The notes under the pieces were generated by a model. That model did no database searches, was not told where the DNA came from, and was given only the letters and a program-made list of their open reading frames with translations. Shown piece after piece: positions 1 through 59,949 of a stretch of DNA of 64,000 nucleotides. This stretch comes from Acidobacteriota bacterium. GTDB lineage: Bacteria > Acidobacteriota > Thermoanaerobaculia > Thermoanaerobaculales > Sulfomarinibacteraceae. A program made the position numbers and the translations under genes. Numbering within the stretch: position 1 is the first letter of the stretch; each line of letters begins with the position of its first letter. Where the stretch lies: the NCBI GenBank assembly GCA_013152895.1, contig JAADFN010000181.1, positions 1,143-65,142 of the forward strand. The letters run 5' to 3'.

Positions 1-155
1 CCTTTTCATCCTTCCAGTCGAGCGCAATTATTCCTTATCGCCGGACACAAGGGTCTCAAGCGTTCATAACCTCCGCACAGTGCGCAACATCACGCCGGGG
101 CGGAGGATCGCGGGGTGTATTCTTGGAAAGAGGTTCAACGATGGAAGGTGGTCTC

Positions 156-2000
156 ATGACGCGACTCGCTCCTGTGATCCTGGCGATGGTGGTCGTCATA
201 TCCAGCGGCCGCGCGATGGCCGACCAGCTGGTGGACGACTTCGAGAACCCGGCCGGATGGTCGGCCTGGTCGTTTTCGAACGGGCCGGAATGCCCCGGGG
301 CGGCGGGCAGCCTGGATCGGATCGCCGGAGCTGGCCGCAACGGTTCGACCGCGGCGCGGCTGCGATTCGATTTCACCGGGGGCGGCTGTCACGTGGGGGC
401 GCGGCGTTCGCTGGAGGGGTTTTCCGCCCGTCGGGGGATCTCCTTCTGGCTCGCCGGCGCCGTGCCGGGAACGCGCCTTTTCGTGTGGTTGACCGACGAG
501 ACGGGTCAGGTCTTCGAGACCTACCTGCCGATGCAAAGCTGCGATTCGCGGAGGTGGGTCCGGTACCGGATCCTGGCGGCCGGGGGCGGTCGGTGGTGGG
601 GTGGCGCTGCGGACGGCGTCTTCCACGGTGGAGCCACGGCCTTGGAGATCCTCCTCGATGTCGGCTATGGCGTTCACCGGACCGGGGAGATCTTTCTCGA
701 TGACGTGACGGCCCTGTCGGGGTCGCGTTTCCGGCTCGACCCCTTCGCCGCCGCGGCCGATGCGCCGGTGCTCTTCCGGGGCCGGTTGCACGATCGCCTC
801 GGGGTCAATGTCAACCTGGCATCGCTGAGTACTAGCCGGCTCGATCGCGCCGCGGCTGCAGGGTTCGGCTGGGTGCGGACGGACATGGCATGGGCCCAGG
901 TGGAGCAGGTCCGCGGCTCGTACGACTTTGCGCCTTACGATGCCCTGGTGGACGCCGTCGAGGCGCGCGGGATGCACGCGTTGCTGATTCTCGACTACTT
1001 CAACCCTCTCTACTGCCGGGATCCCGGATGTGACGAACATACCGGCCCCGTGACCGACACGCAGCAGAACGCCTTTGCTGCGTTCGCCGCCGCTGCCGCA
1101 GCCCATTTCGACGGTCGGGCCGTCTCCCTCGAGGTGTGGAACGAGCCCAACAGTACGAGCTTCTGGCGCCCCGAACCCGATCCGGCTGCGTACGGACGAC
1201 TGGCGGCGAAAACGTTGGCCGCGGTTCGAGAGGCGAGCGCTCGCGTGCCGGTGATCGTCGGCGTCACCGCCGGGGTCGATGTGGATTTTCTCGACGCCGC
1301 CCTGGCGGCCGCCGACCTGTCCAGGGCCGATGGGATCAGCGTGCACCCCTACCGGTCCTTCGAGCCCGAGTCGATCGGAGAGGACATGGCCCTGTTGCGG
1401 GAGACCGTCGCGGCGCGCACCGGTCGCCATGACATCCCGGTGATCTCGGGCGAGTGGGGATACACCACGCTGGAGTTGGGCGGGAGCGGCCCGGAGGCCC
1501 TGCAACGGCAGGCAGTGGCGGCCGTGCGGGAGCTCCTGTCGGCACAACTGTACCGGTTGCCCCTGGCGATCTGGTACGACCTGACGGACGACTGTGGCGA
1601 TCCCACCGAGTGGGAGTGCAACTTTGGTCTCCTGTGGGACGATGGCACGACCCCGAAGCCGGCGTGGAACGCCGTAGCGGCCATGAACCGGATCGTCCCC
1701 GGAGGGAAGGTCCAGGTCTCGGACTGTGGCCAGCCGCCGGCGGTCTACTGTCTCGCTTTTCGTGGTACGAACGGCACGGTCGCGGCACTGTGGAGCGGTC
1801 AGGAGGGGACCCAGGTCACGGTACAGCTGCCCGGCTCCCTCGGGGTGGACGTGCTGGACCTGTTTGGCGCGCCGGCCGGTGGAACGGTCTTCGTCGGGAG
1901 GGAGCTCACATTGAGGGAGGAGGATGGCCCGGTGTACCTTCGCGTGCAACGTCGGCCCAGGAGGTCGAAAGGCCGCCTGGTGCCGGCGAGATTGCAGTAA
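156..2000 (+). CDS. Secreted GH5-like glycoside hydrolase with an N-terminal carbohydrate-binding-like domain
   Basis: ORF 123..2000. The ATG at 156 follows GGAAGGTGG. Signal peptide MTRLAPVILAMVVVISSGRAMA. GH5 hallmarks EVWNEPN (acid/base Glu) and ISGEWGY (nucleophile Glu). Confidence 0.75.
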   Translation: MTRLAPVILAMVVVISSGRAMADQLVDDFENPAGWSAWSFSNGPECPGAAGSLDRIAGAGRNGSTAARLRFDFTGGGCHVGARRSLEGFSARRGISFWLAGAVPGTRLFVWLTDETGQVFETYLPMQSCDSRRWVRYRILAAGGGRWWGGAADGVFHGGATALEILLDVGYGVHRTGEIFLDDVTALSGSRFRLDPFAAAADAPVLFRGRLHDRLGVNVNLASLSTSRLDRAAAAGFGWVRTDMAWAQVEQVRGSYDFAPYDALVDAVEARGMHALLILDYFNPLYCRDPGCDEHTGPVTDTQQNAFAAFAAAAAAHFDGRAVSLEVWNEPNSTSFWRPEPDPAAYGRLAAKTLAAVREASARVPVIVGVTAGVDVDFLDAALAAADLSRADGISVHPYRSFEPESIGEDMALLRETVAARTGRHDIPVISGEWGYTTLELGGSGPEALQRQAVAAVRELLSAQLYRLPLAIWYDLTDDCGDPTEWECNFGLLWDDGTTPKPAWNAVAAMNRIVPGGKVQVSDCGQPPAVYCLAFRGTNGTVAALWSGQEGTQVTVQLPGSLGVDVLDLFGAPAGGTVFVGRELTLREEDGPVYLRVQRRPRRSKGRLVPARLQ

Positions 2001-2313: not shown

Positions 2314-2703
2314 ATGGGGAAGGCTCAAAGCGGCGAGAGAACCGTGAGCGATGGCGGCCGGACGGTGTCGGCGTGGTGGCGGTGGGTGGGGGAGGATCTC
2401 GTCATGGTGATCGGGGGTGGAGCGCGGCCCCACGTGGGCTCGGTGGTGCTGGCGCAGCCCCGGCCGTCGAGCGCGAAACCGGGGCGGCGCTCGGCGACGG
2501 TTTCGGTGTTGAACATTCCGCCGCACAAGGACGAGGCGGTTGCACGCTCGATGGCCGAGACGCTTGCCGTCGAGCTCGGATGCACGGTGGTCGTGACGGC
2601 GGGGATCCACGAGGACGGGCTCGATGCGGCCGGAATCGAGAGCTATCTCGAGCTGGCCGGGCGGCTGGCGCGCGAGCTCATGCGCGCCGTCCGGGTGAGG
2701 TGA
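2314..2703 (+). CDS. LpdD-like small protein (prenylated-flavin chaperone-like fold)
   Basis: The ATG at 2314 follows GGAGGGGA. GGGARPHVGSVV...PPHKDEAVARSMAETLA...CTVVVTAGIHEDGL parallels the GGTNPHIGDV...HKD...TAGIH pattern I recall from Lactobacillus LpdD. Confidence 0.55.
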   Translation: MGKAQSGERTVSDGGRTVSAWWRWVGEDLVMVIGGGARPHVGSVVLAQPRPSSAKPGRRSATVSVLNIPPHKDEAVARSMAETLAVELGCTVVVTAGIHEDGLDAAGIESYLELAGRLARELMRAVRVR

Positions 2704-2709
2704 GAGGGA

Positions 2710-4767
2710 GTGCTCGCGGCGGTCGCCTTCTTCCTGTTCGTGCTCGTGGCCGGCCTGTGCGGCTATGCGCTGCTCGTCCGCCTCGGGTTGCCCGACGGCG
2801 AGGCGTGGGGGCTGGGACGCGCCGCGGGGCTGGTACTGGTCGCGCTACCGGCCTGGTGGGCCGGGTGTCTCGGGTTCGGAGGGTGGCGCTGGGTGGGTGG
2901 GGCCGTTCTGCTGGCCGGAGGCGCTGCGGGCCTGTGGACGTTGTGGAGACGGCGGCCCGGGTGGCGGGAGCTGGCGGCCGCCGAGGCGGTCTTCACGCTC
3001 GGATGGGTCGCCGTTGGCGTGCTGCGCCTCGACCATCCCGCGATTCGGGGGACCGAGAAGCCGATGGATCTCGGGATCTTCGCCACGTTGCTCCGGGCGC
3101 GGTCGTTCCCGCCCCCGGACATGTGGCTCGCGGGGTTCTCGCTGCCGTACTACTACTGGGGCGCGCTGGTGTGGATCGTGCCTCTCGCGCTCGGCGGGCT
3201 TGGGCTGGGAACGGGGTACAACCTCGTCGTCGCGCTGGTGGGCGGTCTGGTTGCGGTGGGTGTTTGGGTTCTCGCGGGGCGTCTTGCCGGTTCAAAGACC
3301 GCCGCGCTGGCAGCGGTCTTTCTCACGATGTTCGCCGGGACGCCGGACGGCCTCCGCCAGCTCTTCGCGGGCCGGGGCCTGGCGTCGCTCGACTACTGGG
3401 CCTCCTCGCGCCAGGTGCCGCACACGATCACCGAGTTTCCGCTGTTCACGCTGTGGCTGGGGGACCTGCATCCCCACCTGCTCTCGCTGCCGCTTGCACT
3501 CCTGGCGGTGGCGCTGGCGGCTCACGCGGCTCTCAAGGGTCTGCGGCCAGCGAATCTCGCGGCGATCGCGGTTGCCTTCGGCGCGACCTGGGCGGCCAAC
3601 CCGTGGGCGATGCCGCCGACGCTTACGGCGGTCGCGCTGATGCTGATCGCGGGCGACGGGCGGTGGCCGGCCGGGAATGGTCTTCGCCGGTGGGGGGCGG
3701 CGGGCACCGTCGCGATCGGCGGTGGGGTCGCGATGGCGCCGTTCCTGCTGGAGTTTCATCCCCCGTTCCACGGTATCGGCTTCGTCCATGCCTGGACGCC
3801 GTTTCCCGATCTGCTGCTCTACGCGGGGCCGCTTCTCGTCCTCGCCGCCGTCGGGGCGCTTGGGCTGGTCGTCGAGAGGCCGGCGGCCGATCCGTCCCGC
3901 CGGCGGATGTGGATCTGGCTCGTTGCGGCGTGGCTCGTGCTGGTGGCGGCGCTGAGCGGGCGGCCGGTGGCGGTGCTGCTGGCCGGGCTGCTCGCCGTGT
4001 TGGTCTGGTGGAGCGTGGCCACGCACGAGCCGGACCCGGACCGGGGCGCGATCTGGCTTGCGGCCCTGGGCGTCTTTCTCTTCCTGGTTCCAGAGATCAT
4101 CTTCGTCCGCGATCCGTACGGGGCGGAGCTCCACCGGATGAACACGGTGTTCAAGGCGTACTTCCAGGGTTGGGTGTTCCTGGCGGTCGCGGCGCCGGTT
4201 CTCTTCCGGAGGGCGCCGGTGAAGCGGCTCGGCGCGGCGGTGCTCGCCGCTGTGCTCGTTCTCCCAGCGCTTCCCGACCTCGCGGGGATGATGACGGCGC
4301 CGTTTCGCGCCGGACGGTTGGGCGTTGCGGGGCTCGAGTGGATGGATCCGGGCGATCTGGCGGCGGTTTCGCGGCTCAAACGCATGCCGCCCGCAACGGT
4401 GTTGGTCGAGGCCGTCGGAAACGCCTACAGCGATTACGCGCGCCTGTCCTCGGCGTCGGGGGTGCCGGCGGTCCTGGGGTGGAGCAACCACGAGCTGGTG
4501 TGGCGCGGCGGCGGGATCGGGCCGGTGCTCGAACGGCGGCGGAAACTGGTTCGCCGGGTTTACACGTGCGGCTCGGCAAAAACGATCCGCGCTCTGGCGG
4601 AAGAGACGCCCTTCGATGTCATCGCCGTGGGCGGCATGGAGCGCCGGACGTATCCACAGCTTGACGAGGACGCGATCCGGCGGGCGGGACGTGTCATCCT
4701 GGACGGGGAGGGAATGATGCTGGTCGATGTTGGGCGGAGCAAACAGCGGCGCGGGGGTGCGCGATGA
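2710..4767 (+). CDS. DUF2298 / YYY-domain (TIGR03662-like) polytopic membrane protein
   Basis: GTG start at 2710 after GAGGGAG. The protein is highly hydrophobic throughout. The signature DMWLAGFSLPYYYWG carries the YYYxG motif. Confidence 0.8.
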   Translation: MLAAVAFFLFVLVAGLCGYALLVRLGLPDGEAWGLGRAAGLVLVALPAWWAGCLGFGGWRWVGGAVLLAGGAAGLWTLWRRRPGWRELAAAEAVFTLGWVAVGVLRLDHPAIRGTEKPMDLGIFATLLRARSFPPPDMWLAGFSLPYYYWGALVWIVPLALGGLGLGTGYNLVVALVGGLVAVGVWVLAGRLAGSKTAALAAVFLTMFAGTPDGLRQLFAGRGLASLDYWASSRQVPHTITEFPLFTLWLGDLHPHLLSLPLALLAVALAAHAALKGLRPANLAAIAVAFGATWAANPWAMPPTLTAVALMLIAGDGRWPAGNGLRRWGAAGTVAIGGGVAMAPFLLEFHPPFHGIGFVHAWTPFPDLLLYAGPLLVLAAVGALGLVVERPAADPSRRRMWIWLVAAWLVLVAALSGRPVAVLLAGLLAVLVWWSVATHEPDPDRGAIWLAALGVFLFLVPEIIFVRDPYGAELHRMNTVFKAYFQGWVFLAVAAPVLFRRAPVKRLGAAVLAAVLVLPALPDLAGMMTAPFRAGRLGVAGLEWMDPGDLAAVSRLKRMPPATVLVEAVGNAYSDYARLSSASGVPAVLGWSNHELVWRGGGIGPVLERRRKLVRRVYTCGSAKTIRALAEETPFDVIAVGGMERRTYPQLDEDAIRRAGRVILDGEGMMLVDVGRSKQRRGGAR

Positions 4768-7157
4768 GCGAGCGCGTGGTTGTTGATGGCTCGACGGGCG
4801 CCTCCGCAGCACGGAGGCGGGCCTGGATCGCGCTGATCCTGCTGGCCGTTGCGCTGCACCTCTGGGGGCTCGGCGGGCGGTCCTTTCACCACGATGAGTC
4901 AATCCACGCGCGCCTGTCGTGGGATCTTCTCCACGAGGGGAGCTACCGGTACGATCCGACCTACCACGGCCCGCTGCTCTACATGCTGACGGCCGGGACC
5001 TTCGCCGTGCTCGGCGATTCCGACTTCACGGCGCGGATCCCCGCGGCGCTGGCCGGGATCCTGATGCTGGCTGTGGCGTGGAAGCTGCGGCGGCCGTTCG
5101 GAGATCGGGCGGCGTGGTGGACGGGGCTCCTCTTCACGGTCTCCCCGATCTTTCTCTACTACGGACGGTTCCTCAGGATGGACCTGATCGAGGCCGTCAC
5201 GGCGTCGGCGGCGTTCCTGGCGCTCTGGGCGGCCATCCGGGGCTCGGACCGGGCGTGGCCGTGGCTCGGGCTGTGGGCCGGGCTCGCCTTCGCGACGAAG
5301 GAAAACGCGTACGTGACGGTATTCCTGGCCGTGCTTGCTGGGGGGATGACCGGGCTCGCCTTCGGGCCGCGGCAGAGCCTCGCGCGGGCGTTGCGGTGGC
5401 TCACGGCGAAGTGGACGGGGATCGCGACGGCCGTGTCGGTCTTCATCGTGGTGACGATTCCGCTCTACACCGTCGGGTTCACGCACCTGGCGGACTGGTG
5501 CTTTCCGCTCAAGGCGATCGCCTACTGGTGGAAGCAGCACGAGATCGCCCGGGTCGGCGGCCCGTGGTGGTACCACCTGCCGCGTCTGGCCCAGTATGAG
5601 TTCCTGCCGATCCTGCTGGCGCTGATCTGGATCGTGCGGCGACGCAAGCGGCTCAAGCCGGTCGAGATCTTCCTGTTCAGCTTCGGCGTGTTGTCGATCG
5701 GGCTTTACTGCTACCTCGGCGAGAAGACTCCGTGGCTCGAGGTGCACCAGGTCTGGGCGTTCATCCCGCTGGCCGGCGCCCAGTTGGCCAGGACCTTCGG
5801 ACGGCGGGGACGGCGGTGGAGCCGGAGCCTGGCGGCGATCGGCCTGGCCGCGACCCTCGTGGTGTCGTTCGTGGCGTCGTTCGTTCTCGACGAGATCTCG
5901 CCGGCGCAGCGGCGCGTCGAGTCGCTGATCTTCGTCCAGACGTGCCCGGAATTCAGGGACGTTGCCATGGAGGGGCTGCGGCTCGCGCGCTCCAACCCCG
6001 GCGTCGTGGCGGCGGTGTCGGGTGAGGCGGCGTGGCCGCTGATGTGGTACTGGAGAAAGACGGGCGTCATGTGGAGCCTGCCGCATCCCGGGCAGCGTCC
6101 GCCGCTCGTGATCTGCGATCCGGAGACGGAGGCCGAGGCGCGAAGCATCCTCGGCCCTGGGTACAGCCGCCGCCGGATTCCCCTGCGGGCGTGGTGGCTG
6201 ATGTACCAACGCAAACCGTCGCTCGAAGAGATCGCCAGGTACGAGCTGACGCGCATTCCGTGGGGCAGCATCGGGTCGACCGATGTCATCGTGCTGACGC
6301 GTATGAAGAAAACTGCGGCCGTCGTCACCAACGTTCCGGTGCCGAAGCGGTTGCAGGAGGCGTTCGGGGCGGTCTCGATGAAGATGCTCGGGACCGGCTG
6401 GCTCGGCGAGCCGCGCGGAATCTCGATCCGTTCCGGCCGTATTGCCGTGGCCGACGCCGCGCTCTCCCAGGTGATGATCCTCGATCCAGCCGGAACGGCG
6501 CGCCGCGTCGACGTTGGAGGGCTCAACCAGCCGGAATCCGTGGTCTGGGCCGGGGCGAACACGTTGCTGGTCGCAGACACGTGGAGCCAGCGGGTTGTTC
6601 GTGTCAATGTCGCCACGGGCCGGGAGGAGACGCTTCCGGCGCCACGGGACGGCTGGTACGGGCCGCGCGGCATCGCGATCGGGCCGGATGGCTCGGTGGC
6701 CGTGACGGACACCGGCCACAAGCGGATCATTCTCTACGCCCCGGATCTCCATCATCGTACGGTGATCGGGCACCCGGGGACCGGCCGGGGTGGCCTGATC
6801 GAGCCGGTCGGGATCGCCTGGCTCGACCGGCAATCTTTCGTCGTGTGCGACACCGGGAACCGCCGGCTCGAAGTCTTCACGACGGACGGCGTGGTGCGCC
6901 GGATCGTTGGGCTCCCGGCCGCGTGGAGCGACTTCTACTCGAGGCCCCAGATCGCGGTGCTGGGGCCTCGCGACTGGATCGTCAGCGATACGCCGGGCAA
7001 GGCGCTGTGGCGGATCCGCGGCACGACCGTCGAGCGCATTGCACTCGGTAGGCTCGGTATGGATCCCACCGGCGTGGCGTGGGACGCCGCCGGGCACGAG
7101 CTGGCCATCGGCGATCTCTCAGGTAAAGTATGGGTGCTGGAGGTTCCCCGTGGGTGA
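4764..7157 (+). CDS. TIGR03663/Agl23-like GT-C-type membrane glycosyltransferase-like protein with a C-terminal NHL-repeat beta-propeller
   Basis: ATGA overlap with the upstream gene. N-terminal WGLGGRSFHHDESIHA loop motif followed by many TM segments. The C-terminal ~250 aa carry NHL repeats (PRGIAIGPDGSVAVTDTGHKRIILY, PVGIAWLDRQSFVVCDTGNRRLEVF). Confidence 0.8.
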   Translation: MSERVVVDGSTGASAARRRAWIALILLAVALHLWGLGGRSFHHDESIHARLSWDLLHEGSYRYDPTYHGPLLYMLTAGTFAVLGDSDFTARIPAALAGILMLAVAWKLRRPFGDRAAWWTGLLFTVSPIFLYYGRFLRMDLIEAVTASAAFLALWAAIRGSDRAWPWLGLWAGLAFATKENAYVTVFLAVLAGGMTGLAFGPRQSLARALRWLTAKWTGIATAVSVFIVVTIPLYTVGFTHLADWCFPLKAIAYWWKQHEIARVGGPWWYHLPRLAQYEFLPILLALIWIVRRRKRLKPVEIFLFSFGVLSIGLYCYLGEKTPWLEVHQVWAFIPLAGAQLARTFGRRGRRWSRSLAAIGLAATLVVSFVASFVLDEISPAQRRVESLIFVQTCPEFRDVAMEGLRLARSNPGVVAAVSGEAAWPLMWYWRKTGVMWSLPHPGQRPPLVICDPETEAEARSILGPGYSRRRIPLRAWWLMYQRKPSLEEIARYELTRIPWGSIGSTDVIVLTRMKKTAAVVTNVPVPKRLQEAFGAVSMKMLGTGWLGEPRGISIRSGRIAVADAALSQVMILDPAGTARRVDVGGLNQPESVVWAGANTLLVADTWSQRVVRVNVATGREETLPAPRDGWYGPRGIAIGPDGSVAVTDTGHKRIILYAPDLHHRTVIGHPGTGRGGLIEPVGIAWLDRQSFVVCDTGNRRLEVFTTDGVVRRIVGLPAAWSDFYSRPQIAVLGPRDWIVSDTPGKALWRIRGTTVERIALGRLGMDPTGVAWDAAGHELAIGDLSGKVWVLEVPRG

Positions 7158-8142
7158 GCGCCCCGAGATCAGCGTCGTCGTCCCCGCGTTCAACGAGGAG
7201 GCGAACGTCGTGCCGATGGTCGAGCGCCTGGTGGCGGCGCTCGACGGCGTCGTCGAGGGCTTCGAGATCGTCTTCATCGACGACGGCTCGAAGGACCGCA
7301 CGTGGGCCGAGGTTGCGGCGCTGGCCGAACGGGACCGGCGGGTGCGCGGCGTGCGATTCGCCCGCAACTTCGGGCACCAGGCGGCTGTGACGGCCGGGAT
7401 CGACGCGGCACGCGGGACGGCAGTGGTCCTCATCGATGCCGATCTGCAGGACCCGCCCGAGGTGATTCCCGAGCTCGTCGCGAAGTGGCGCGAGGGGTTC
7501 GAGGTCGTGTACGCACAGCGCGAGGCCCGGGAGGGCGAGAGCTGGTTCAAGAAGACGACCGCGGCGTTCTTCTACAGGACGTTGCGGGCGATCACCAACG
7601 TCGACATCCCGCTCGACACGGGGGACTTTCGCCTGATGGGACCCCGGGCGGTCGAGGCGTTCCGGGCGTTTGGAGAACGCAACCGGTTCATCCGCGGCCT
7701 CGTGAGTTGGGTGGGATTCGAGCAGGCCGGGGTCCGGTACCGCCGCCATGCGCGGAACGCGGGCGAGACGAAGTACCCGTTGAAGAAGATGATCCGCTTC
7801 GCGATCGACGGCATCACGTCGTTTTCGTTCCTGCCGTTGCGGCTGGCGACCTGGCTCGGCTTCGCCGTCTCGGCCCTGGCCTTCGTCTACATCGTGGTCG
7901 TCATCGGCCTCAAGCTCGCCGGGATCAACTGGCCCGGCTACACGTCGCTGATGGCGTCGATCCTCTTCCTCGGAGGCGTGCAGCTGATCATGATCGGTAT
8001 CCTCGGCGAGTACCTCGGGCGGGTCTTCGACGAGGTCAAGCAGCGGCCGCTCTACCTCGTGGGAGAGAGCACCGACGGGACCGTTCCCGTCGTCGGGAGG
8101 GCCCGCGGCCGGGAGCGGGGCGATGACGAGGCCGGGCGATGA
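7150..8142 (+). CDS. GT2 polyprenyl-phosphate glycosyltransferase (GtrB/ArnC/DPM1-like) with a C-terminal TM pair
   Basis: GTG at 7150 overlaps the upstream stop. Motifs ISVVVPAFNEE, FIDDGSKDRT and IDADLQDPPE. The C-terminus is hydrophobic (FLPLRLATWLGF..., LFLGGVQLIMIGILGEY). Confidence 0.85.
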   Translation: MGERPEISVVVPAFNEEANVVPMVERLVAALDGVVEGFEIVFIDDGSKDRTWAEVAALAERDRRVRGVRFARNFGHQAAVTAGIDAARGTAVVLIDADLQDPPEVIPELVAKWREGFEVVYAQREAREGESWFKKTTAAFFYRTLRAITNVDIPLDTGDFRLMGPRAVEAFRAFGERNRFIRGLVSWVGFEQAGVRYRRHARNAGETKYPLKKMIRFAIDGITSFSFLPLRLATWLGFAVSALAFVYIVVVIGLKLAGINWPGYTSLMASILFLGGVQLIMIGILGEYLGRVFDEVKQRPLYLVGESTDGTVPVVGRARGRERGDDEAGR

Positions 8143-9107
8143 CCGGCGGCGATCGTCCCGCCGCCTTCGGAGGACCGGGATGGTCGCCGCGGACACGAAC
8201 GCTTCGGCAGGAGATCGGTCCGATCTGGTCGCGCTGCGGCGTCGACACGGAATGGATGCCGCTCAAACGGGTGCTCGTGCACGCCCCCGGCCGGGAGCTC
8301 GCGGCATCGGCCGATCCGGGCGCGGTTCAGATGCTTGCGCCGGTCGATCTGGACGTGGCCCGGCGGCAGCACGAGGCGCTCGTGGCGGCGTACCGGCGTC
8401 TCGGTGTCGGCGTGGAGCTGATCGAGCCCGAGGGTGATGTTCCTCCGAACCTGGTGTTTGTCGCCGACCTGTTCCTGATGACGCCGGAGGGCGCCATCGT
8501 CGGGCGGCCGGCCTCGACGGTCCGGGCCGGCGAGGAACGGCACGTGGCCCGGCGCCTGGCGGCGCTCGGGATCCCCATCCTGCGAAGCATCCGGGGGTGC
8601 GGAACCTTCGAAGGCGCCGACGCGCTCTGGCTTGCTCCCACGAAGGTCGTGGTGGGCGTGGGCTTTCGCACCAACCGGGAGGGGTTCCAGCAGGTGGCCT
8701 CGTGCCTCGGGGAGCTCGGTGCCGATGCCGTGGAGGTGGCGCTTCCCCAAGGAGCGATGCACCTGATGGGCACGCTGCGCCTTCTCGACCGTGATCTGGC
8801 GATCGCGTGGCCCGGGCGTCTTGGGCAACGTACCCGTGCGATCCTCGAAGAGGCCGGCTTCGACGTGCTTCTCGTGCCTGACACGGACGAGCTGACGCGC
8901 GGTCAGGCGCTGAACGTGGTCGTTGTGAAGCCCCGCACGGTCCTGATGCCCGCGGGCAATCCAGAGACGCGCCGGTGGCTCGAAGGGCACGGCGTCACGT
9001 GCATCGAAGTGGAGGTTTCGGAGCTCGCCAAGGCCGCGGGTGGGATCGCCTGCATGAGCGGCGTTCTCGAACGAGGGCCGGCGCAGCCGGCGGACGGGGC
9101 GATGTGA
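8139..9107 (+). CDS. Amidinotransferase-fold enzyme (DDAH / arginine deiminase-related)
   Basis: ATGA overlap at 8139. FEGADALWL, HLMGTL and a C-terminal GGIACMSG putative Cys nucleophile are typical of the guanidino-modifying superfamily. Confidence 0.7.
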   Translation: MTGGDRPAAFGGPGWSPRTRTLRQEIGPIWSRCGVDTEWMPLKRVLVHAPGRELAASADPGAVQMLAPVDLDVARRQHEALVAAYRRLGVGVELIEPEGDVPPNLVFVADLFLMTPEGAIVGRPASTVRAGEERHVARRLAALGIPILRSIRGCGTFEGADALWLAPTKVVVGVGFRTNREGFQQVASCLGELGADAVEVALPQGAMHLMGTLRLLDRDLAIAWPGRLGQRTRAILEEAGFDVLLVPDTDELTRGQALNVVVVKPRTVLMPAGNPETRRWLEGHGVTCIEVEVSELAKAAGGIACMSGVLERGPAQPADGAM

Positions 9108-10285
9108 TGGAACGCCCCCGGTGGGACGTGATCGTTGCCGGCGCGGGTCCCGCCGGATGTCACGCGGCGTGGGAGCTGGGCCGGCGGGGATGGCACGTCC
9201 TGCTGATCGACCGTGCGTCATTCCCACGGTGGAAACCATGCGCCGGCGGCATCACGGTCAAAGCCTCGCCATACATCCCCGCGGAGCTTCGCAATCTGTT
9301 CGAGCGCGAGATGTCCGAGGCGGTGATCTCGTACGGGCCACGGCTCGTCACACGCATCCGGTCGTCGCGTCCCGTCGGGTGGGTGGTCCACAGGGAAACG
9401 TTCGATGCGGCCCATCTTGAGCTTGTGCGCTCGCTCGACCGGGTCGACGTGTTGGAAGGTTGCACCGTCCGCGATGTGATCGAGACGGCATGGCAGGTTG
9501 TGGTCACGACCTCGTGCGGCGAGCTCAGGAGCCTGGCGCTCGTCGGGGCGGACGGAGTCGAGAGCCGCGTCAGGAGGGCCATTTTCCCAACGGCCGAGCG
9601 CGAGTTCGCCGCGACGTACGAGATGGAGGCGCGCATGCCCCATATCGAAGACGGTCCCGCATCAGTCTCGTTTGATCTTCAATCGTTTCCGGGAGGCTAT
9701 GGCTGGATCTTTCCCAAGCGGACCACCTTCTCGATCGGGGGCTACGTCGAAGGCGGTCCAGGCGGAGGCCGGGTAGCGCGGGCGCGTCTTGAACGTTTCA
9801 TCGCCTGCTGGCCCCAGCTGGAAGGCAGCGAGCCGGTGCGCGCCCGGGGGTACAGGATCCCCGTCGGGGGAAGCCGCGCCCGCATGAATACCAACCGTAT
9901 CGTGCTTGCCGGCGATGCGGCCGGTACCGTCGATCCGGTGACCGGCGAGGGCATCTCGTACGCCTTCATGACCGGTCACCTGGCCGCCCAGGCCATCGAT
10001 GCGATGCTGAAAACGGGCCGTTCTCTCGACGGGTACGGCCTGCAGCTCTGGTGGAAAATCCACGGGCCGTTCGTCTTGGCCCGCCGGCTTTCCGATCTGC
10101 TCTTTCACCATCCGCGCAGCGCGTTCGAGTACCTGTTCCGGAACCGGCGGATCTGCGGTTGGTTCGTGCGCGTCATTCGCGGGGAGATGACCTATGCTGG
10201 CCTCCTGGCCCGTGCGGCGGTGTTGGCGCCGGTGTTGATCCCATCGCACCGGAACGGCCACGAGGTGACGTTCAATGTGCCGTAA
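9107..10285 (+). CDS. Geranylgeranyl reductase family FAD-dependent oxidoreductase
   Basis: The ATG at 9107 overlaps the upstream TGA by 1 nt. Motifs DVIVAGAGPAGCHAA (FAD GxGxxG), KPCAGGI and LAGDAAG. Confidence 0.8.
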   Translation: MERPRWDVIVAGAGPAGCHAAWELGRRGWHVLLIDRASFPRWKPCAGGITVKASPYIPAELRNLFEREMSEAVISYGPRLVTRIRSSRPVGWVVHRETFDAAHLELVRSLDRVDVLEGCTVRDVIETAWQVVVTTSCGELRSLALVGADGVESRVRRAIFPTAEREFAATYEMEARMPHIEDGPASVSFDLQSFPGGYGWIFPKRTTFSIGGYVEGGPGGGRVARARLERFIACWPQLEGSEPVRARGYRIPVGGSRARMNTNRIVLAGDAAGTVDPVTGEGISYAFMTGHLAAQAIDAMLKTGRSLDGYGLQLWWKIHGPFVLARRLSDLLFHHPRSAFEYLFRNRRICGWFVRVIRGEMTYAGLLARAAVLAPVLIPSHRNGHEVTFNVP

Positions 10286-11888
10286 GCGCGTAACACGTGC
10301 GAGATTCAGACGCGTGGTACTGGTCGTCATGCTTGCCGGCATCGGCGCCACGGTCGCAGGGCCGGCGTGCGCTGACGATCCCTGGATCATCACGACGCCG
10401 GTCACGATCACGCAGCCAACGGATCTCGGAGATGTCATCGTTGCCAGTGGCGGTCGGTTGACGGTCGAAAACGTACCCGACCCGGGGGTGCGCCTTGCCG
10501 GCAATCTCATGGTGGTTGGGCATGGCAGCTTGGTTCTGAAAGACTCGGTCATTCAGTTCATGAGCACGTACAACGGGCAGTATGTCCTCGTGGTGACGGA
10601 CGACGGATCGGCGCTGATCTCGGGGTGCGACTACCGCGTTCCCAACCGGGTCCAGCATGCCCTCTATGCGGGCGGCCGGGGATCGATCGAGATCACCGCC
10701 ACGGATTTCGGGAATGTCCAGCTCGTTGCCGCGGAAGACTCGCACATCGAAGCCACCCGTCTGGACGGCAACTTCGAGGTGATTCTGCAGGAGAGAGGGG
10801 CTATCATCCTCGAAGACATTCCCCGCGATCCCGGGCGTGGCACGCTTTGGGTCTGGCCCGAGTTTCCAGCGGGGAGCACCGCGGTGTACACGCCTCCGGA
10901 GCCGGGCTTCATCGAGTCGTGGAGCTTTCCCCCACCGGGTGCCGTGGGGATTCCCGACACGTGCCACCTCCAGCGGTGCCAGGTGCTTCTGTGGCCGATG
11001 CTGGTCAAGGAGGGGGCCGACCTGACACTCCGGGACATCCCGGAAGACAACAGGGTCATCGTCGGGCTGCATCTGCCACATGCAGAGACGATCACCGGGC
11101 TTGAAAACAACAGGACCTACGCGAATGAAAGGCTTCCACTGGCCGACCGGACGATCCGTCTCGAAAATGCCTCGATCGACACCTGGAACCTCTACCCCGA
11201 GAACGGTGCCAACGTGACCGTCAGGGACTCCGTCATCGGGGAGATGCTCACGTTCGGCGGCGCCCACTCGGTTCTGGAAAACACGACCGTCGATGGGAGC
11301 GGCGGGTATTTCGGCGCTGAGGCCACGTCGGTATCTATTGCACGAAACTGCACGTTCACCTGTGACATCCAAGCGTCGGACGATGCCACGATCGAGCTGC
11401 ACGGATGCCGCATCGAGCCCTATCCCCAAGATACCGATGGAACCATCACGAGGATCGGGGCGTTCGATCGGGCACGCCTCCTGGTGGATGCCTCCGAGGT
11501 TTCGACGAATCCCGTGCTCGGGGGGCAGGGGCTGATCGCGGGAACGTGGATCGAGAATCCTCCCCGCGTGCCTCCCGTTCCGGGCGTGGCGCTCGGCCTG
11601 TACGGAATCGCCTCGCTCTTCACACTTCCCGGTGGGCCTGCGCCCGGGTCGTGGAAGCTGGAAGCCGTGGACGCGGACGGCCACGTGCTGTCGGTTCTCG
11701 GAAGCGGATCGACATCCGGGGACCGCCGGCTGCTGGGCATCTGGGCGGGCGCGCGTGCGGCCAAGACATCCGGGCTCGAGCTCGTGCTCACCGACGGATG
11801 GGGCAGAACGCTGACCGGCTCGGTGAACCTGGCGACGATCGCCCGGCGGTCGTCCCGGGGCGTCCGTCCCGTCACGAAGATGCGCTGA
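10275..11888 (+). CDS. Secreted protein with right-handed parallel beta-helix-like repeats
   Basis: Start overlaps the upstream gene by 11 nt. Signal peptide RRVVLVVMLAGIGATVAGPACA. Periodic repeats have alternating hydrophobic beta-strand patterns (VTVRDSVIGEM..., SVSIARNCTFTCDIQ...). Confidence 0.6.
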   Translation: MCRKRVTRARFRRVVLVVMLAGIGATVAGPACADDPWIITTPVTITQPTDLGDVIVASGGRLTVENVPDPGVRLAGNLMVVGHGSLVLKDSVIQFMSTYNGQYVLVVTDDGSALISGCDYRVPNRVQHALYAGGRGSIEITATDFGNVQLVAAEDSHIEATRLDGNFEVILQERGAIILEDIPRDPGRGTLWVWPEFPAGSTAVYTPPEPGFIESWSFPPPGAVGIPDTCHLQRCQVLLWPMLVKEGADLTLRDIPEDNRVIVGLHLPHAETITGLENNRTYANERLPLADRTIRLENASIDTWNLYPENGANVTVRDSVIGEMLTFGGAHSVLENTTVDGSGGYFGAEATSVSIARNCTFTCDIQASDDATIELHGCRIEPYPQDTDGTITRIGAFDRARLLVDASEVSTNPVLGGQGLIAGTWIENPPRVPPVPGVALGLYGIASLFTLPGGPAPGSWKLEAVDADGHVLSVLGSGSTSGDRRLLGIWAGARAAKTSGLELVLTDGWGRTLTGSVNLATIARRSSRGVRPVTKMR

Positions 11889-11979: not shown

Positions 11980-13137
11980 ATGTTGCAACGGCTAGGACCT
12001 CGATGGATCGACACGGCTTCGGGAGTGGAGGAGGCGGCCCGCGCATGCCGGGATGCGGGGCGTTTCGCCCTCGATACGGAAGCCGATTCGCTCCACTCGT
12101 ACTTTCACAAGGTGTGTCTCATCCAGGTGTCGGCTGACGGAAGTCATTTCCTGATCGATCCGCTGGCGCTCAACCGGACCGCGCTGGCGCCGCTCTTCGA
12201 AGTCATCGGGGACCCGGCAGTGCCCATCCTGATGCACGGAGCGGATTACGACATTCGCATGCTCGATCGTGATTTCGGCGCGAGGGTCCACGGGCTGGAA
12301 GATACGGAGCTCATGGCGCACCTGCTGGGCGAGCCGAGGACGGGGCTGGCAACGCTTCTCGAACGGGAGCTGGACATTTCTCTGGACAAGAAGTACCAGC
12401 GGGCGGACTGGGGCCGGCGTCCGATTCCGGACGAGATGCTCGATTATGCCGCCGCGGATACAGCGTTCCTGGAGCCGTTGAACGCCAGGCTCCGGCAGCG
12501 GCTCGAAGCGATGGGCCGGTGGGAGTGGGCCGTCGAGGAGTTTCGCCGCATGGAGGAGATCCGCTTTCACCGGGCGGCGCCGAACCCGCTGGCGTTCGAG
12601 CGGGTCAAGGATGTCCGCAGTCTGCGAGGCGGCGCTCGTGACCGGGCATACTCGCTTTTCGTGTGGCGGGACCAGGAGGCGCAGCGGCTCGATATACCGC
12701 CCTTCAAGGTTCTCGGAAATCGTCAGCTTGCAGGGCTCGCGGTGACCCCTCCCACGGATGTTCGTGAGCTGGCGGCGCGCCCTGGGCTTGGATCTCGCTT
12801 TGCACACCGCTGGGGGGCGGACGTTCTCGCCGTGCTGGCGAATCCATCCCCTGCGCCGCCACGCCAGCGCGGCCAGGCGCACCGGCAGCTCGACGCGGCG
12901 CAACTGGCGCGGCTCAGGCGGTTCAGGGCTGCCCGTGATGCGGCCGCGCAGGAGCTTGGACTGGAGCCGGGGCTGCTCTGCCCGAAGGCGCTCCTGGAGA
13001 CGCTGGCGACATGCGACCTGAGGGTCCGCGAGGCCGGCGACCTTGCGGCGTGCGGCCTGGAAGGATGGCGACTGCGTTGCCTCGGAGCGGCATTTGCCGA
13101 AGCGATGGAGACCACGCCGGGAGGGGACGGGTTGTAG
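11980..13137 (+). CDS. rnd: Ribonuclease D (3'-5' exonuclease plus HRDC domain)
   Basis: DEDD motifs FALDTEADSLHSYFHKVCLIQV and HGADYDIRML, plus ADWGRRP. An HRDC-like C-terminal region is present. Confidence 0.85.
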   Translation: MLQRLGPRWIDTASGVEEAARACRDAGRFALDTEADSLHSYFHKVCLIQVSADGSHFLIDPLALNRTALAPLFEVIGDPAVPILMHGADYDIRMLDRDFGARVHGLEDTELMAHLLGEPRTGLATLLERELDISLDKKYQRADWGRRPIPDEMLDYAAADTAFLEPLNARLRQRLEAMGRWEWAVEEFRRMEEIRFHRAAPNPLAFERVKDVRSLRGGARDRAYSLFVWRDQEAQRLDIPPFKVLGNRQLAGLAVTPPTDVRELAARPGLGSRFAHRWGADVLAVLANPSPAPPRQRGQAHRQLDAAQLARLRRFRAARDAAAQELGLEPGLLCPKALLETLATCDLRVREAGDLAACGLEGWRLRCLGAAFAEAMETTPGGDGL

Positions 13138-13139
13138 GG

Positions 13140-13907
13140 ATGCGCGCAGCGGCCTGTATCATCGACATCGACGGGACAGTGGTGACGTCCACCGGGCCGA
13201 TCCCCGGCGCTGCCGGCGCCATCGCGGCGCTCGAACGCGCCGGGATCCGGTACGTGTTCGCCACGAACACGACGCGGCACCCGCGCACCGTTCTGGCCGC
13301 GCGGCTCGCCTCTGCCGGGATCGATGTCGAACCCGAGCGCATCTGGACGGCGCCCGTTGCAGCCGCACGGTGGCTGCAGGCACGCGGCGTGACGCGGGTT
13401 TCACTGCTCCTTCCCAGCGCGAGCTTCGAGGAGTTTTCCGGTTTCGAGGTCGATGACGAGCGCCCGGAGGCCGTTGTTGTCGGCGATCTGGGCCGGGAGT
13501 GGACCTTCGACCGGCTCAACGCCGCTTTTCTCGCCCTGCGCGCCGGCGCCGTCCTGGTGGCGATTCAGAAGAATCGCTGCTGGAACGATGGAACCGGCCT
13601 GAAGCTCGACGCCGGCCCGTTCGTCGCCGCGCTCGAGTACGCCACCGGCCGGACGGCGGAGCTGATCGGAAAACCCGCGGCAGCCTTCTTTGAAACGGCG
13701 ATCTCGTTTCTCCAGGCGCCGAGAGAACGGATCGTCGTCGTCGGGGACAGCGTCGAGAATGACGTCAAAGGCGGTCATGACGCCGGCTGTCAGGCCGTCG
13801 CCGTTCGCACCGGCTCGTTTCGCGAGGACGATCTCGCCGCACTCGCCCGTCCCCCCGAAGCCATCCTCGCCACGATCGCCGCCCTCCCGGATTGGCTCGG
13901 CATCTAG
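13140..13907 (+). CDS. HAD-IIA family hydrolase (NagD/LHPP-like)
   Basis: DxDGT motif IIDIDGTVV, FATNTT and GDSVENDVKGG. The internal ATG at 13140 was chosen because the family N-terminus begins there. Confidence 0.8.
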   Translation: MRAAACIIDIDGTVVTSTGPIPGAAGAIAALERAGIRYVFATNTTRHPRTVLAARLASAGIDVEPERIWTAPVAAARWLQARGVTRVSLLLPSASFEEFSGFEVDDERPEAVVVGDLGREWTFDRLNAAFLALRAGAVLVAIQKNRCWNDGTGLKLDAGPFVAALEYATGRTAELIGKPAAAFFETAISFLQAPRERIVVVGDSVENDVKGGHDAGCQAVAVRTGSFREDDLAALARPPEAILATIAALPDWLGI

Positions 13908-15629: not shown

Positions 15630-17132
15630 TCACGCCCCTTTCGCCATCTCCGTGGGCGCCGCGTGCTCCCCGCTGTGTTCCGTTCGTTCCGGCTCGATGA
15701 ACTCCTGGTCCCAGACCGGCTTCGTCAGCTCCGCCACCTTGTGGCCGTAATCGACGAGCCCTTCCCGGTACGCCTCATCGTCCAGGGCGGCAGCGGCAGG
15801 CTCGTCCATTGGCGTAGCGCCCGTCTTCCTAATGGCGTTATACGCGAACGCGTAGTGGTCGCGGATCGGGCATGGGACGATCAGGTTCTGAACCTCGGTG
15901 GATTCGCGCTTGTACCCGTACGCGTCCTGCCAGTTACGGATCCGTTGAAACAGCGGATGCATCAGGACGTCCGACAGGTGCCCGCCCTGGCGATAGATGT
16001 CGTTGATGTCCGCGGTCTGGTAGGGGAAGAACACGCACGGCGAGACGTGCCCGTTCCAGTCGATGTAGAAGTAGCCTCCGGGACGGCCGGCCGAGATGCA
16101 TCCGTTGGAGATCGGGCCTCCGTTCCAGAAATCGACGAGGAAGATCTTCTTGTCGAAGATGATGTGCTCCTCGCGCTCGTACATCTTGAGGCGCTGATCG
16201 GGGGTGACCACCAGGTCGAGGGTGAAGCTGCGGCCGATGGGCATGTACTGGAACATCCATCCGTAAACCGCGCCCTGCTCGTTGAAGTAGTAGTCGACGA
16301 ACTCGTCGCTGGTCAGGATATCGACGTTGAGGCGAGTGGCGGTGGCCGAGATCCCGAATGGAACGCCCGCCTCCCGCAGGTTGGCGAATGCCTGCAAGAT
16401 TTTCTCATGGACGCCCTTGCCGCGCCGCTCGTCGGTCTGTTCCTCGAAGCCCTCCACCGAGATCGCGGGGGTCACGTTTCCCAGCCACGCGAGGCGGCGG
16501 GCCACCTCGGGGGTGATCAGGGTCCCGTTGGTGTACACCATGAAGTAGTTGTCGTTGAACTCCTGGAAAATATCGAAGATGTCGTGACCGTCGTCGGTCC
16601 TGTACATGAACGGTTCGCCGCCGGAAATGACCGTGAAGAACGATCCCCAGTCCCGGCGTTTCTCCTCGAGAATCCACCTGAAGACGTCATAGTCCAGCTT
16701 TTCGGTGTTGGCAGCCGTGCTCGAGGCGTAGCACCCCGTGCAGTGCAGGTTACACCGCTTCGTCGGGCTGATCGTGACGAAGCTCGGCGGGCTGAACCCG
16801 TTTCGCTCAACGAACGGGGCCTGGCGGTCGTTCTCGCCGATGATGACATGGCCTACGAAGTTACGGATCAGTGCCCTGCGGACCTGGGGCGAGATGCGGC
16901 CGTCGCCGAGCGCGCGGTCGACGGTGTGAAACAGGTTCGAGAGCACCTGCACCCGGAGCTCTTCCACCCGGCGCGGCCGGTTGTCGGGATTATCCACGAC
17001 GTACCGCTGGTAGAGAAGCTCGTCGCCCTTTTCCAGGGCCCATTTCCGGACGAGTTTTTGTTTGATCGACGTGTCGAGAAGCCCGGTGGAAAGGGACTTC
17101 CAAACAGCGTCGATACGGAGAGAATCCAACAT
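15630..17132 (-). CDS. Radical SAM enzyme (~500 aa) with an N-terminal extension and a twitch/SPASM-like C-terminal Cys region
   Basis: The ATG at 17132 lies 6 nt after GGAGGTG. Motifs CNLHCTGC (CX3CX2C), ISGGEPFMY, and later GCISAGRPGGYFYIDWNGHVSPCVFFP and VPCPIRDH. Confidence 0.85.
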   Translation of the reverse strand: MLDSLRIDAVWKSLSTGLLDTSIKQKLVRKWALEKGDELLYQRYVVDNPDNRPRRVEELRVQVLSNLFHTVDRALGDGRISPQVRRALIRNFVGHVIIGENDRQAPFVERNGFSPPSFVTISPTKRCNLHCTGCYASSTAANTEKLDYDVFRWILEEKRRDWGSFFTVISGGEPFMYRTDDGHDIFDIFQEFNDNYFMVYTNGTLITPEVARRLAWLGNVTPAISVEGFEEQTDERRGKGVHEKILQAFANLREAGVPFGISATATRLNVDILTSDEFVDYYFNEQGAVYGWMFQYMPIGRSFTLDLVVTPDQRLKMYEREEHIIFDKKIFLVDFWNGGPISNGCISAGRPGGYFYIDWNGHVSPCVFFPYQTADINDIYRQGGHLSDVLMHPLFQRIRNWQDAYGYKRESTEVQNLIVPCPIRDHYAFAYNAIRKTGATPMDEPAAAALDDEAYREGLVDYGHKVAELTKPVWDQEFIEPERTEHSGEHAAPTEMAKGA

Positions 17133-17309
17133 GATGCACCTCCACTCAACGTTTGGAAATGCCCGTTCCGGTTCGTCACGTGGCGGATCGGCGGGGCGTA
17201 CAAAGAACAACGTGTAGCCCCGCGCCATTCGGCGGAGCCACCTAGGAAGAACGTAGGTCCCAGGGCTCGAGATCGCAAGGCCTGCTCAGGCCGGGGACAT
17301 GCATCTTGA

Positions 17310-45552: not shown

Positions 45553-45970
45553 AACTGGAAGAGCGGGCGGGCTGGGTGAAGATCTCGGCGAAGCTGGTAT
45601 CTTCTGACAGCAGGGCGGGGCAGTCGCGAGCCGTGAGCCATGCGTGGTAGAGCCTGGTATTGCCGGCCTTCTTGATGCCGAGGTGGAGCTCCGGCTCGAG
45701 GCCGCAGCGGGACCAGAGGTCGAGGAGAATGAGTGAGCGCTTGAGGCATCGTCCCATGTGACGTGGGGGAAGGAACGAAGCGGTACGAGAGACGAGCGCA
45801 CCGGCGACAACGGGATCACGGAGAGGACGTGGGAGGGGAGAGACGCCGGAAAGCCACGCAGGAAGCTCGTCGAGGCCGTGCCGGCGGTAGCCGAAGGCGA
45901 CGCGAGCGGCGGCGAGCCCGACCCACGGGAGCAGGCAAAGCGCGCGAACCGCATTCCTTCTCATGCTCAT
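45551..45970 (-). CDS. Lasso-peptide B2-type transglutaminase-like cysteine protease (Transglut_core3-like)
   Basis: The ATG at 45970 is in an ATGA overlap with the upstream stop. MGRCLKRSLILLDLWSRCGLEPELHLGI...RLYHAWLTARD matches the Cys...His...Asp layout of lasso B2 proteins. 139 aa. Confidence 0.7.
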   Translation of the reverse strand: MSMRRNAVRALCLLPWVGLAAARVAFGYRRHGLDELPAWLSGVSPLPRPLRDPVVAGALVSRTASFLPPRHMGRCLKRSLILLDLWSRCGLEPELHLGIKKAGNTRLYHAWLTARDCPALLSEDTSFAEIFTQPARSSS

Positions 45971-54004: not shown

Positions 54005-54048
54005 GTTCCCCTCCAGTCCCAAAACCAAGGCAAGTCTCTCTTATCATC

Positions 54049-59945: not shown

Positions 59946-59949
59946 TCCA

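Follow-up and report, generated by a model that had tools for sequence, protein, structure and literature searches.

A conserved LpdD-like/DUF2298/Agl23-like/GtrB-like gene module in Thermoanaerobaculia with a possible role in lipid-linked-sugar glycosylation

Seven co-directional genes, here called g1 to g7, fill positions 2314-11888 on the forward strand of a 64-kb stretch of DNA (the window) from the metagenome-assembled genome of an uncultured Acidobacteriota bacterium of the Sulfomarinibacteraceae (contig JAADFN010000181.1, positions 1,143 to 65,142). An initial annotation treated them as one self-contained pathway. We found that the conserved unit is smaller. It consists of genes for an LpdD-like protein (g1), a DUF2298 membrane protein (g2), optionally an Agl23-like membrane protein (g3) and a GtrB-like glycosyltransferase (g4), and it is often divergent from ispG. 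Genes g5, g6 and g7 were probably placed behind this core more recently, in one small subclade, so that the locus appears to be a mosaic. With moderate confidence, we propose that the core module glycosylates an extracytoplasmic target via a lipid-linked sugar.

All families involved were catalogued before, and in public records the genes carry family names. The co-occurrence of TIGR03662 and TIGR03663 proteins is already mentioned in the family descriptions. What this study adds is the abundance and conservation of the module in Thermoanaerobaculia, beyond Archaea and Chloroflexi. In bacteria, a GtrB homologue is its constant partner, and an LpdD-fold protein and ispG are usually close by. 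Also new are a predicted C-type glycosyltransferase (GT-C) fold for DUF2298, a variable NHL domain and an alternative location beside pilin genes for g3, and the recognition of the "seven-gene operon" as lineage-specific. DUF2298/YYY and TIGR03663 are widespread membrane families, and the Acidobacteriota are a major phylum of soils and sediments that is rarely cultured. If the module works as proposed, both families could be assigned to lipid-sugar-dependent envelope glycosylation in this phylum.

Conservation of the core module

Synteny was surveyed around g2 homologues, with one genome per species, and was scored by tblastn with the window proteins. The survey comprised 52 loci, about 45 of Thermoanaerobaculia type and the rest from Chloroflexi. 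The loci were at most 22 kb long, and what they tell is therefore adjacency, not the presence of g5, g6 and g7 genome-wide. Among the 44 loci that could be judged, g4 followed g2 or g2-g3 in 39. In 27 of the 52 loci a g1 homologue preceded g2, mostly immediately so. Gene g3 separated g2 from g4 in about half of the loci; in about 21 it was absent and g2 and g4 were directly adjacent. About 27 of the 52 loci, among them L057 and L059-L061 from Chloroflexi, had g2 and g3 side by side, and the Chloroflexi loci kept the g2-g3 pair only.

The idea of a module for polyprenyl-phosphate sugars and GT-C enzymes, which was put forward in the initial annotation, is thus backed by class-wide synteny for g2-g3-g4 plus g1. 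Its view that the YYY-domain and TIGR03663 families occur mainly in Archaea and Chloroflexi is outdated, as hundreds of homologues are acidobacterial.

Predicted functions of the core proteins

As judged from its sequence, g4 is a GtrB-type polyprenyl-phosphate hexose synthase and a close GtrB homologue. It matched GtrB of Synechocystis (sll0501, 5EKP) over residues 6-306 (E = 1.2e-94), the ArnC structure (1e-45) and PF00535 (1.1e-33). Its DxD motif is DAD within VVLIDADLQD, and two C-terminal transmembrane (TM) helices lie at about residues 228-290. The GtrB match and these helices agree with its earlier description as a glycosyltransferase family 2 (GT2) polyprenyl-phosphate sugar synthase with a TM tail. 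The best NCBIfam match was PgfS (1.1e-85, 287.6 bits versus an equivalog cutoff of 500), and the NCBIfam ArnC model gave 1.2e-50 (172.3 bits versus an equivalog cutoff of 529).

The YYY-domain assignment of g2 also held, with a score of 354.8 bits over residues 2-659 against the TIGR03662 (Chlor_Arch_YYY) cutoff of 300.25 and a match to PF10060 (1.5e-82). The motif LPYYYWG at residues 145-151 was invariant in 50 homologues. What had been missed is the GT-C-like fold of DUF2298. The AlphaFold2 (AF2) model of g2 is multi-helical (pLDDT 90.5, pTM 0.92). In a Foldseek search of the PDB, this model matched the C-mannosyltransferase DPY19 first (1.4e-6), followed by STT3, AglB, AftA, PglB and ArnT with probabilities of 0.98-1.0; the arabinosyltransferases AftB and EmbB were matched as well. 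Because the model matches GT-C glycosyltransferases, DUF2298 itself is most likely a GT-C enzyme. Residues E116, K117, M119 and D120 (TEKxMDLG, in g2 TEKPMDLG), D137 and the DLHPH motif are invariant and lie in predicted loop regions. Among them, E116, D120 and D137 are candidate catalytic acidic residues of the first extracytoplasmic loop. A literature search found no paper assigning DUF2298 to the GT-C fold.

The third core protein, g3, scored 257.7 bits over residues 21-433 against the TIGR03663 cutoff of 126.25, which agrees with its earlier naming as an Agl23-like protein with an HHDESIHA loop. It also matched PMT_2 (3.7e-15). HHDE(S/A)IHA (HHDE at residues 41-44) and DPTYHGP were identical in all 16 homologues inspected. 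The TIGR03663 description names an invariant N-terminal DE dipeptide and an HGP tripeptide, both of which g3 has, and the DE motif resembles the catalytic DE of PMT loop-1. The family was recognized before, whereas the C-terminal NHL propeller and the published description of Agl23 as a flippase were overlooked. NHL propeller structures matched the C-terminal part of g3 at up to 2e-22, and the charge distribution, with a loop rich in K/R that precedes the last TM helix, would place this domain outside the cytoplasm. In L027, L028, L034, L035, L037 and L041, the g3 between g2 and g4 has no NHL domain (the matches end near query residue 515). As several relatives of g3 are built in this way, the propeller seems to be an optional accessory domain of the family. 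The g3 protein is 100% identical to the NCBI entry "MAG: TIGR03663 family protein [Acidobacteria bacterium]", and its relatives are labeled Thermoanaerobaculia, Thermoanaerobaculales or Sulfomarinibacteraceae.

Three full-length g3 homologues (Agl23-like plus NHL, 52-55% identity) were found elsewhere, at L003:10001-13634, L005:10001-13777 and L006:10001-14242. They have no g2 or g4 beside them, and the genes directly downstream are those of type IV minor pilins (N_methyl). A PilY1-containing cluster follows on the pilin side, and a PAS histidine kinase gene lies upstream. These three homologues form one clade in the g3 tree.

The small protein g1 matched PF21758 (2.9e-32, 111.2 bits versus a cutoff of 27) and, in a search of PDB sequences, the LpdD structures 8PZH and 8P4W (1e-6), so that its earlier naming as LpdD-like holds. 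The LpdD metal ligands H35, H61 and D63 align with H40, H71 and D73 of g1. Among the matches of g1 orthologues, PHVG was conserved in 29 of 30 and AG[IV]H in all 30, and the third ligand was mostly Glu. On this evidence g1 is a conserved partner of the module, predicted to be a cytoplasmic accessory protein with a His/His/acidic metal-phosphate site. A canonical LpdD/UbiD system was rejected, as neither UbiD nor UbiX was found among the annotated open reading frames (ORFs) of the window or in those related loci that were annotated with Pfam.

At no fewer than 17 distinct related loci, g1 and ispG are divergent neighbors. The ispG gene (GcpE) encodes the 4-hydroxy-3-methylbut-2-enyl diphosphate (HMBPP) synthase of the methylerythritol phosphate (MEP) isoprenoid pathway, as at L001:5946-7849 and L106:5696-7355. 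A GHMP kinase gene often lies farther upstream of the ispG/g1 pair. No ispG was found in the 64-kb window, and thus the arrangement seems to have been lost in its lineage. The divergent pairing hints at co-regulation of g1 with isoprenoid synthesis. Given this pairing, the place of g1 beside the module and its conserved metal-phosphate site, we speculate that g1 may bind a phosphorylated prenyl ligand.

Proposed pathway and its acceptor

In the pathway that we propose, g4 would use a nucleotide sugar at the cytoplasmic face to load polyprenyl phosphate with a hexose-type sugar. The lipid-linked sugar would then cross the inner membrane, possibly via g3, and g2, g3 or both would move the sugar onto a periplasmic or surface acceptor, which the NHL propeller of g3 probably holds. 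In this lineage g6 would at most tailor the carrier lipid, and g5-g7 are probably not integral to the pathway. Charge distribution and homology place g1, g5, g6 and the catalytic domain of g4 in the cytoplasm and the C-terminal domains of g2 and g3 in the periplasm, and suggest that g7 is exported.

The candidate for the second step is g3, because its archaeal homologue flips in vitro and no other gene for flipping is present. The literature describes Haloarcula Agl23 as a putative hexose-P-dolichol flippase. Purified Haloarcula hispanica Agl23 (HhAgl23) translocates lipid-linked glycans in vitro and rescues the yeast rft1 deletion; the same article refers to the partner, Agl22, as a glycosyltransferase of this pathway (PMC11182771). 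NCBIfam calls TIGR03663 "flippase activity-associated protein Agl23". A split like that described for Haloarcula could be considered, in which g3 is a flippase only for the polyprenyl-phosphate hexose and g2, with its predicted GT-C fold and invariant acidic loop residues, is the sole glycosyltransferase. We regard this split as unlikely. The PMT_2 match, the invariant DE motif and the large periplasmic NHL domain would be superfluous in a pure flippase, and they are the reasons for considering g3 as a transferase also, or instead. Moreover, the loci in which g2 and g4 are directly paired do without g3, and the solitary g3 homologues beside type IV pilin genes fit an acceptor-specific transferase better.

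For the proposed module, a protein seems a more likely acceptor than a glycan. The top structural matches of g2 (DPY19, STT3 and AglB) are protein-modifying GT-C enzymes, the layout of g3, with PMT_2 followed by a repeat domain of the protein-interaction type, matches that of the TMTC and PMT enzymes, and the g3 homologues of three other loci adjoin type IV minor-pilin and PilY1 genes. By analogy, these pilin-adjacent homologues give hints of a pilin-related acceptor. These points at the same time count against a serious rival, namely that the core decorates a non-protein envelope polymer (lipopolysaccharide/O-antigen, lipid A or exopolysaccharide) in the manner of GtrABC or ArnC/ArnT. The nearest relatives of g4 are GtrB and ArnC, and the g2 model matches ArnT, AftA, AftB and EmbB as well. 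A secreted GH5-like protein (g0) is encoded just upstream of g1 in the window, and L107 has a GT4 gene and another PMT-like gene near the module. However, none of the related loci had g0 beside the module. Taken together, we give a non-protein acceptor a real chance, but a clearly lesser one than the favored glycosylation module as a whole.

Several points weigh against the proposed module. The preference for a protein acceptor draws wholly on analogy (PMT_2 with a repeat domain, and the pilin neighbors). The GT-C fold of g2 was read from a predicted structure with modest TM-scores (0.32-0.42), and g2 had no match among PDB sequences. The GT-C assignment of g3 derives from a Pfam match over residues 68-213; a profile search of PDB sequences with the g3 membrane domain gave no match, and a profile-profile comparison of this domain with g2 revealed no similarity. 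A GtrA- or ArnEF-type flippase is not encoded in the cluster. The scores of g4 stay under every NCBIfam equivalog cutoff, the level that would imply a sugar specificity. We know of no biochemically characterized bacterial member of these families. Finally, the g4/g5, g5/g6 and g6/g7 overlaps are conserved within the subclade (window, L010, L001 and L012), and some recruitment of g5-g7 to the pathway is therefore possible there.

Genes behind the core

Among about 31 judgeable species-level loci, g5-g6 were located behind g4 in just three (L010, L011 and L012), all of one subclade. In a neighbor-joining tree of g3, the window, L010, L001 and L012 fell into one subclade, and the outgroups L032 and L004 had no g5-g6. 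The loci L010, L001/L011/L077 and L012 share the seven-gene order, with 55-86% amino-acid identity. Of the seven-gene synteny, g1-g4 thus stood as conserved across the class, and g5-g7 did not.

The predicted product of g5 is a hydrolase of the DDAH/arginine-deiminase fold, in line with the amidinotransferase-fold enzyme named before. It matched DDAH of Pseudomonas aeruginosa (1.8e-20), and C249, H162, E114, D66, R85 and R132 of that enzyme all have identical counterparts in the alignment. The equivalents of the Cys-His-Glu triad and of the guanidino- and carboxylate-binding Asp and Arg residues were invariant in the four orthologues aligned. Scores against the NCBIfam DDAH equivalogs (109.8 versus 340, 86.2 versus 450 and 83 versus 300 bits) were all below the cutoffs, and g5 was rejected as a dimethylargininase equivalog. 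A metagenome search anchored on g5 gave 44 loci, many of them on short contigs, and 42 of the 44 had no adjacent module genes. Neighbors of g5 orthologues away from the module included genes for a nitroreductase, a polysaccharide deacetylase, a ParC-like protein, DctM and a peptidase M48.

The assignment of g6 as a geranylgeranyl reductase (GGR) was confirmed by TIGR02032, the GGR superfamily model (194.5 bits versus a cutoff of 158.8). Its best PDB matches were Sulfolobus GGR and the digeranylgeranylglycerophospholipid (DGGGPL) reductase of Thermoplasma, and its KPC cysteine and GGYGWIFPK (GGYxWxFPK) motif align with those of Sulfolobus GGR. An identity as a chlorophyll, menaquinone or archaeal-lipid reductase was rejected on the NCBIfam cutoffs (BchP/ChlP, 120 versus 343; MenJ, 72 versus 700; DGGGPL reductase, 77 versus 580 bits). 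With such low scores, the affinity to bacteriochlorophyll or menaquinone reductases that would have separated g6 from the neighboring genes was not seen. Among the fetched loci, g6 occurred in the seven-gene subclade only.

Described before as a secreted beta-helix protein, g7 is predicted to be a secreted all-beta protein, possibly a beta-helix. It has an N-terminal hydrophobic segment followed by a cleavage-like site (ACA|DD), and its AF2 model is all-beta (pLDDT 91.3). The nearest folds in Foldseek were those of tailspikes, Ag43 and polygalacturonases, all weak matches (E >= 2e-3). No match was found in Pfam, NCBIfam or PDB sequences. There were 209 homologues, and every one with a named source was an acidobacterial "hypothetical protein".

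On long contigs, the g7 orthologues adjoin genes for a convergent S-adenosylmethionine (SAM) methyltransferase, RNase D and a HAD hydrolase, not glycosylation genes. The RNase D and HAD pair follows g7 orthologues in L008, L009, L001 and L010. Because the pair also follows g7 in the window, g7 seems to be the edge of another conserved neighborhood, its ancestral one. The class I SAM methyltransferase gene almost always comes after the g7 orthologue and before RNase D, sometimes with a radical SAM/SPASM gene; the window and L010 showed no homologue of it in the interval from g7 to RNase D. Two proteins encoded beside g7 orthologues, of 591 aa (L004) and 530 aa (L009), were tested as g7 paralogues and rejected.

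These neighborhoods bear on the original proposal of one pathway for all seven genes, in which g6 saturates the carrier, g4 charges it, g5 modifies the sugar or head group, the transfer falls to g2 and g3, and g7 serves as acceptor or glycan-processing enzyme. The order conserved within the subclade fits this proposal, as does the fact that all of the genes overlap or nearly so. There is also a precedent in ArnC-ArnD-ArnT, where a lipid-linked sugar is modified between synthesis and transfer. Furthermore, g6 has the GGR catalytic Cys and YxWxFP and is not an orthologue of BchP, MenJ or the archaeal lipid reductase, and g7 is, by prediction, secreted and possibly beta-helical like many carbohydrate-active proteins. 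However, g5-g6 are missing behind the core in about 28 of the 31 judgeable loci, g5 orthologues (49-61% identity) occur without module genes nearby, and the conserved neighbors of g7 are those of the methyltransferase/RNase D/HAD group, of which the window keeps the last two downstream. Gene g5 also keeps the alpha-carboxylate-binding arginines of DDAHs, which are enzymes of free amino acids. The overlaps themselves are not specific to a pathway in this genome: tight packing and 4-nt overlaps are common in the window, also between unrelated genes such as those for a hexapeptide transferase and a SpoIIE-type phosphatase (Table 1), and overlap is thus no proof of a shared pathway. In compact genomes of high G+C content, gene overlap should not be used by itself to define a pathway. 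We consider a self-contained seven-gene pathway quite unlikely.

A more elaborate version for the subclade would be a "dolichol-like" pathway, in which g6 saturates the carrier, g1 chaperones the prenyl phosphate to GtrB and the GT-C enzymes, and DUF2298 and the NHL-bearing Agl23 are new families of protein glycosyltransferases, possibly for pilins. This combination is improbable and is offered as speculation.

Gene layout and surroundings

The layout of the seven genes and every junction given in the initial annotation were reproduced with identical coordinates. A 6-nt gap (2704-2709) separates g1 and g2. The other junctions are overlaps of 4 nt (g2/g3, ATGA), 8 nt (g3/g4), 4 nt (g4/g5, ATGA), 1 nt (g5/g6, TGATG) and 11 nt (g6/g7). 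Most of the seven starts have a purine-rich, Shine-Dalgarno-like stretch just 5′ of them. As the G+C content of the DNA is high (about 68%), long spurious antisense ORFs are common, for example the one at 8052-9239 on the reverse strand, which covers g5. The seven forward ORFs are nevertheless judged to be real genes and not chance ORFs, because six of the seven had highly significant family matches in the Pfam, NCBIfam and PDB searches and g7 has more than 200 conserved homologues. The g1 ORF is open upstream to 2056; we placed its probable start at 2314, where the ATG is preceded by GGGAGG, and the Pfam match begins at residue 14. A promoter and terminator scan found no consensus signal at either end of the cluster, and Rfam and tRNA scans of the DNA gave nothing informative.

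Other genes of the window are listed in Table 1. Among them are two radical SAM genes, of which the first encodes an unusually long protein with no NCBIfam equivalog (best matches NirJ2 and mycofactocin maturase, about 70 bits), and a gene for a protein of 1725 aa with a sugar epimerase/dehydratase gene next to it.

Table 1. Coordinates of the genes in the window and of the loci beside g7 orthologues
Feature	Position	Strand	Description
g0	123-2000	+	GH5-like (cellulase family) secreted protein, 625 aa, N-terminal domain unassigned; 313 nt upstream of g1
g1	2314-2703	+	129 aa; small, predicted cytoplasmic, LpdD-like, PAC/LpdD chaperone fold
g2	2710-4767	+	685 aa; polytopic YYY/DUF2298 membrane protein, predicted GT-C fold, predicted periplasmic C-terminal domain
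g3	4764-7157	+	797 aa; TIGR03663/Agl23-like PMT_2 (GT-C) membrane domain plus NHL beta-propeller
g3, NHL beta-propeller	~6360-7154	+	residues ~533-797; predicted periplasmic; NHL match 1.3e-13
g4	7150-8142	+	330 aa; GtrB-like GT2, predicted cytoplasmic catalytic domain, two C-terminal TM helices
g5	8139-9107	+	322 aa; predicted cytoplasmic DDAH/arginine-deiminase-fold hydrolase; lineage-specific addition
g6	9107-10285	+	392 aa; predicted cytoplasmic FAD-dependent GGR-family enzyme; lineage-specific addition
g7	10275-11888	+	537 aa; predicted secreted all-beta protein with signal peptide, beta-helix-like body and C-terminal beta-sandwich; clade-restricted
RNase D	11980-13137	+	DNA_pol_A_exo1 and HRDC (Pfam); downstream of g7, outside the glycosylation module
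HAD hydrolase	~13140-13907	+	HAD domain (Pfam); downstream of RNase D, outside the module
Radical SAM protein	15630-17228	-	532 aa
Hexapeptide transferase/SpoIIE-type phosphatase overlap	43650-43653		unrelated genes, 4 nt
Second radical SAM/SPASM gene	45967-47142	-	
1725-aa protein	48851-54028	-	PQQ/BamB-like beta-propeller and rhamnogalacturonan-lyase-type beta-sheet domain
Sugar epimerase/dehydratase	54217-55275	opposite to the 1725-aa protein	NAD-dependent
FtsY, RibD, riboflavin synthase (RibE), unknown protein, lipoate-protein ligase (LplA)	56414-60879	-	head-to-tail, overlapping
Unknown gene/lipoate ligase overlap	57196-57199		within the FtsY-RibD-RibE-X-LplA run
Methyltransferase loci adjacent to g7 orthologues	L007:11493-12323, L008:11938-13690, L009:9559-10329, L004:18682-20479, L001:17098-17928		

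Comparison with known systems

Characterized LpdD is the chaperone of a UbiD-type gallate decarboxylase in Lactiplantibacillus plantarum and binds reduced prenylated flavin mononucleotide (prFMNH2). It shares with g1 the fold family PF21758 and the His/His/Asp metal site, which is proposed to bind the phosphate of the cofactor. Unlike LpdD, g1 adjoins DUF2298/GtrB, diverges from ispG in relatives and has no UbiD/UbiX partner in the window. Because of this context, the ligand of g1 probably differs from that of LpdD, and the module hints that the LpdD chaperone fold has a new role outside UbiD systems.

Like the archaeal GGRs (Sulfolobus GGR and Thermoplasma DGGGPL reductase), g6 has the catalytic Cys together with the YxWxFP motif, and it passes the superfamily model. 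Unlike them, it scores well short of the equivalog cutoffs for reductases of lipids, chlorophyll and menaquinone, and it stands beside the module in one subclade only.

Agl23 is the sole characterized member of TIGR03663. In Haloarcula hispanica, Agl22 and Agl23 act on dolichyl-phosphate hexose, and Agl22 is reportedly a GT2 dolichyl-phosphate hexose synthase. The g3 protein passes the Agl23 model and is paired with the GT2 g4 as Agl23 is with Agl22. In contrast to the archaeal pair, the host is a bacterium, the carrier is presumably polyprenyl phosphate instead of dolichol, g3 has an added NHL domain, and DUF2298 is a further partner. The module bears on whether Agl23-type proteins are flippases, transferases or both.

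The protein-glycosylating systems, namely Ppm1/Pmt of Actinobacteria, eukaryotic PMT, TMTC (PMT_2 plus TPR) and Pgf of Streptococcus mutans, likewise combine a GT2 lipid-sugar synthase with a PMT-family GT-C enzyme. Like the PMTs, g3 has a loop with a DE motif. It shares with these enzymes a predicted extracytoplasmic protein-binding repeat domain, and PgfS is the best NCBIfam match of g4. Unlike those systems, g3 was not GT39 or GT105 by the tests run, and its repeat is NHL, not MIR or TPR; g4, at 288 bits, is below the PgfS equivalog cutoff of 500.

With the GtrA/GtrB/GtrC O-antigen glucosylation and ArnC/ArnT lipid A modification systems of Enterobacteria, the module shares a GT2 with two C-terminal TM helices and, as proposed, a polyprenyl-phosphate sugar. 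As in those systems, a membrane enzyme of the GT-C fold would use this donor on the outer face of the membrane. Unlike GtrABC and Arn, the module has no GtrA or ArnE/F gene, its GT-C partners are DUF2298 and TIGR03663 proteins instead of GtrC or ArnT, and an LpdD-like gene is a conserved partner. In its three proposed steps, the module thus resembles GtrABC, ArnC/ArnT, Ppm1/Pmt, PgfS/PgfM and the archaeal Agl22/Agl23.

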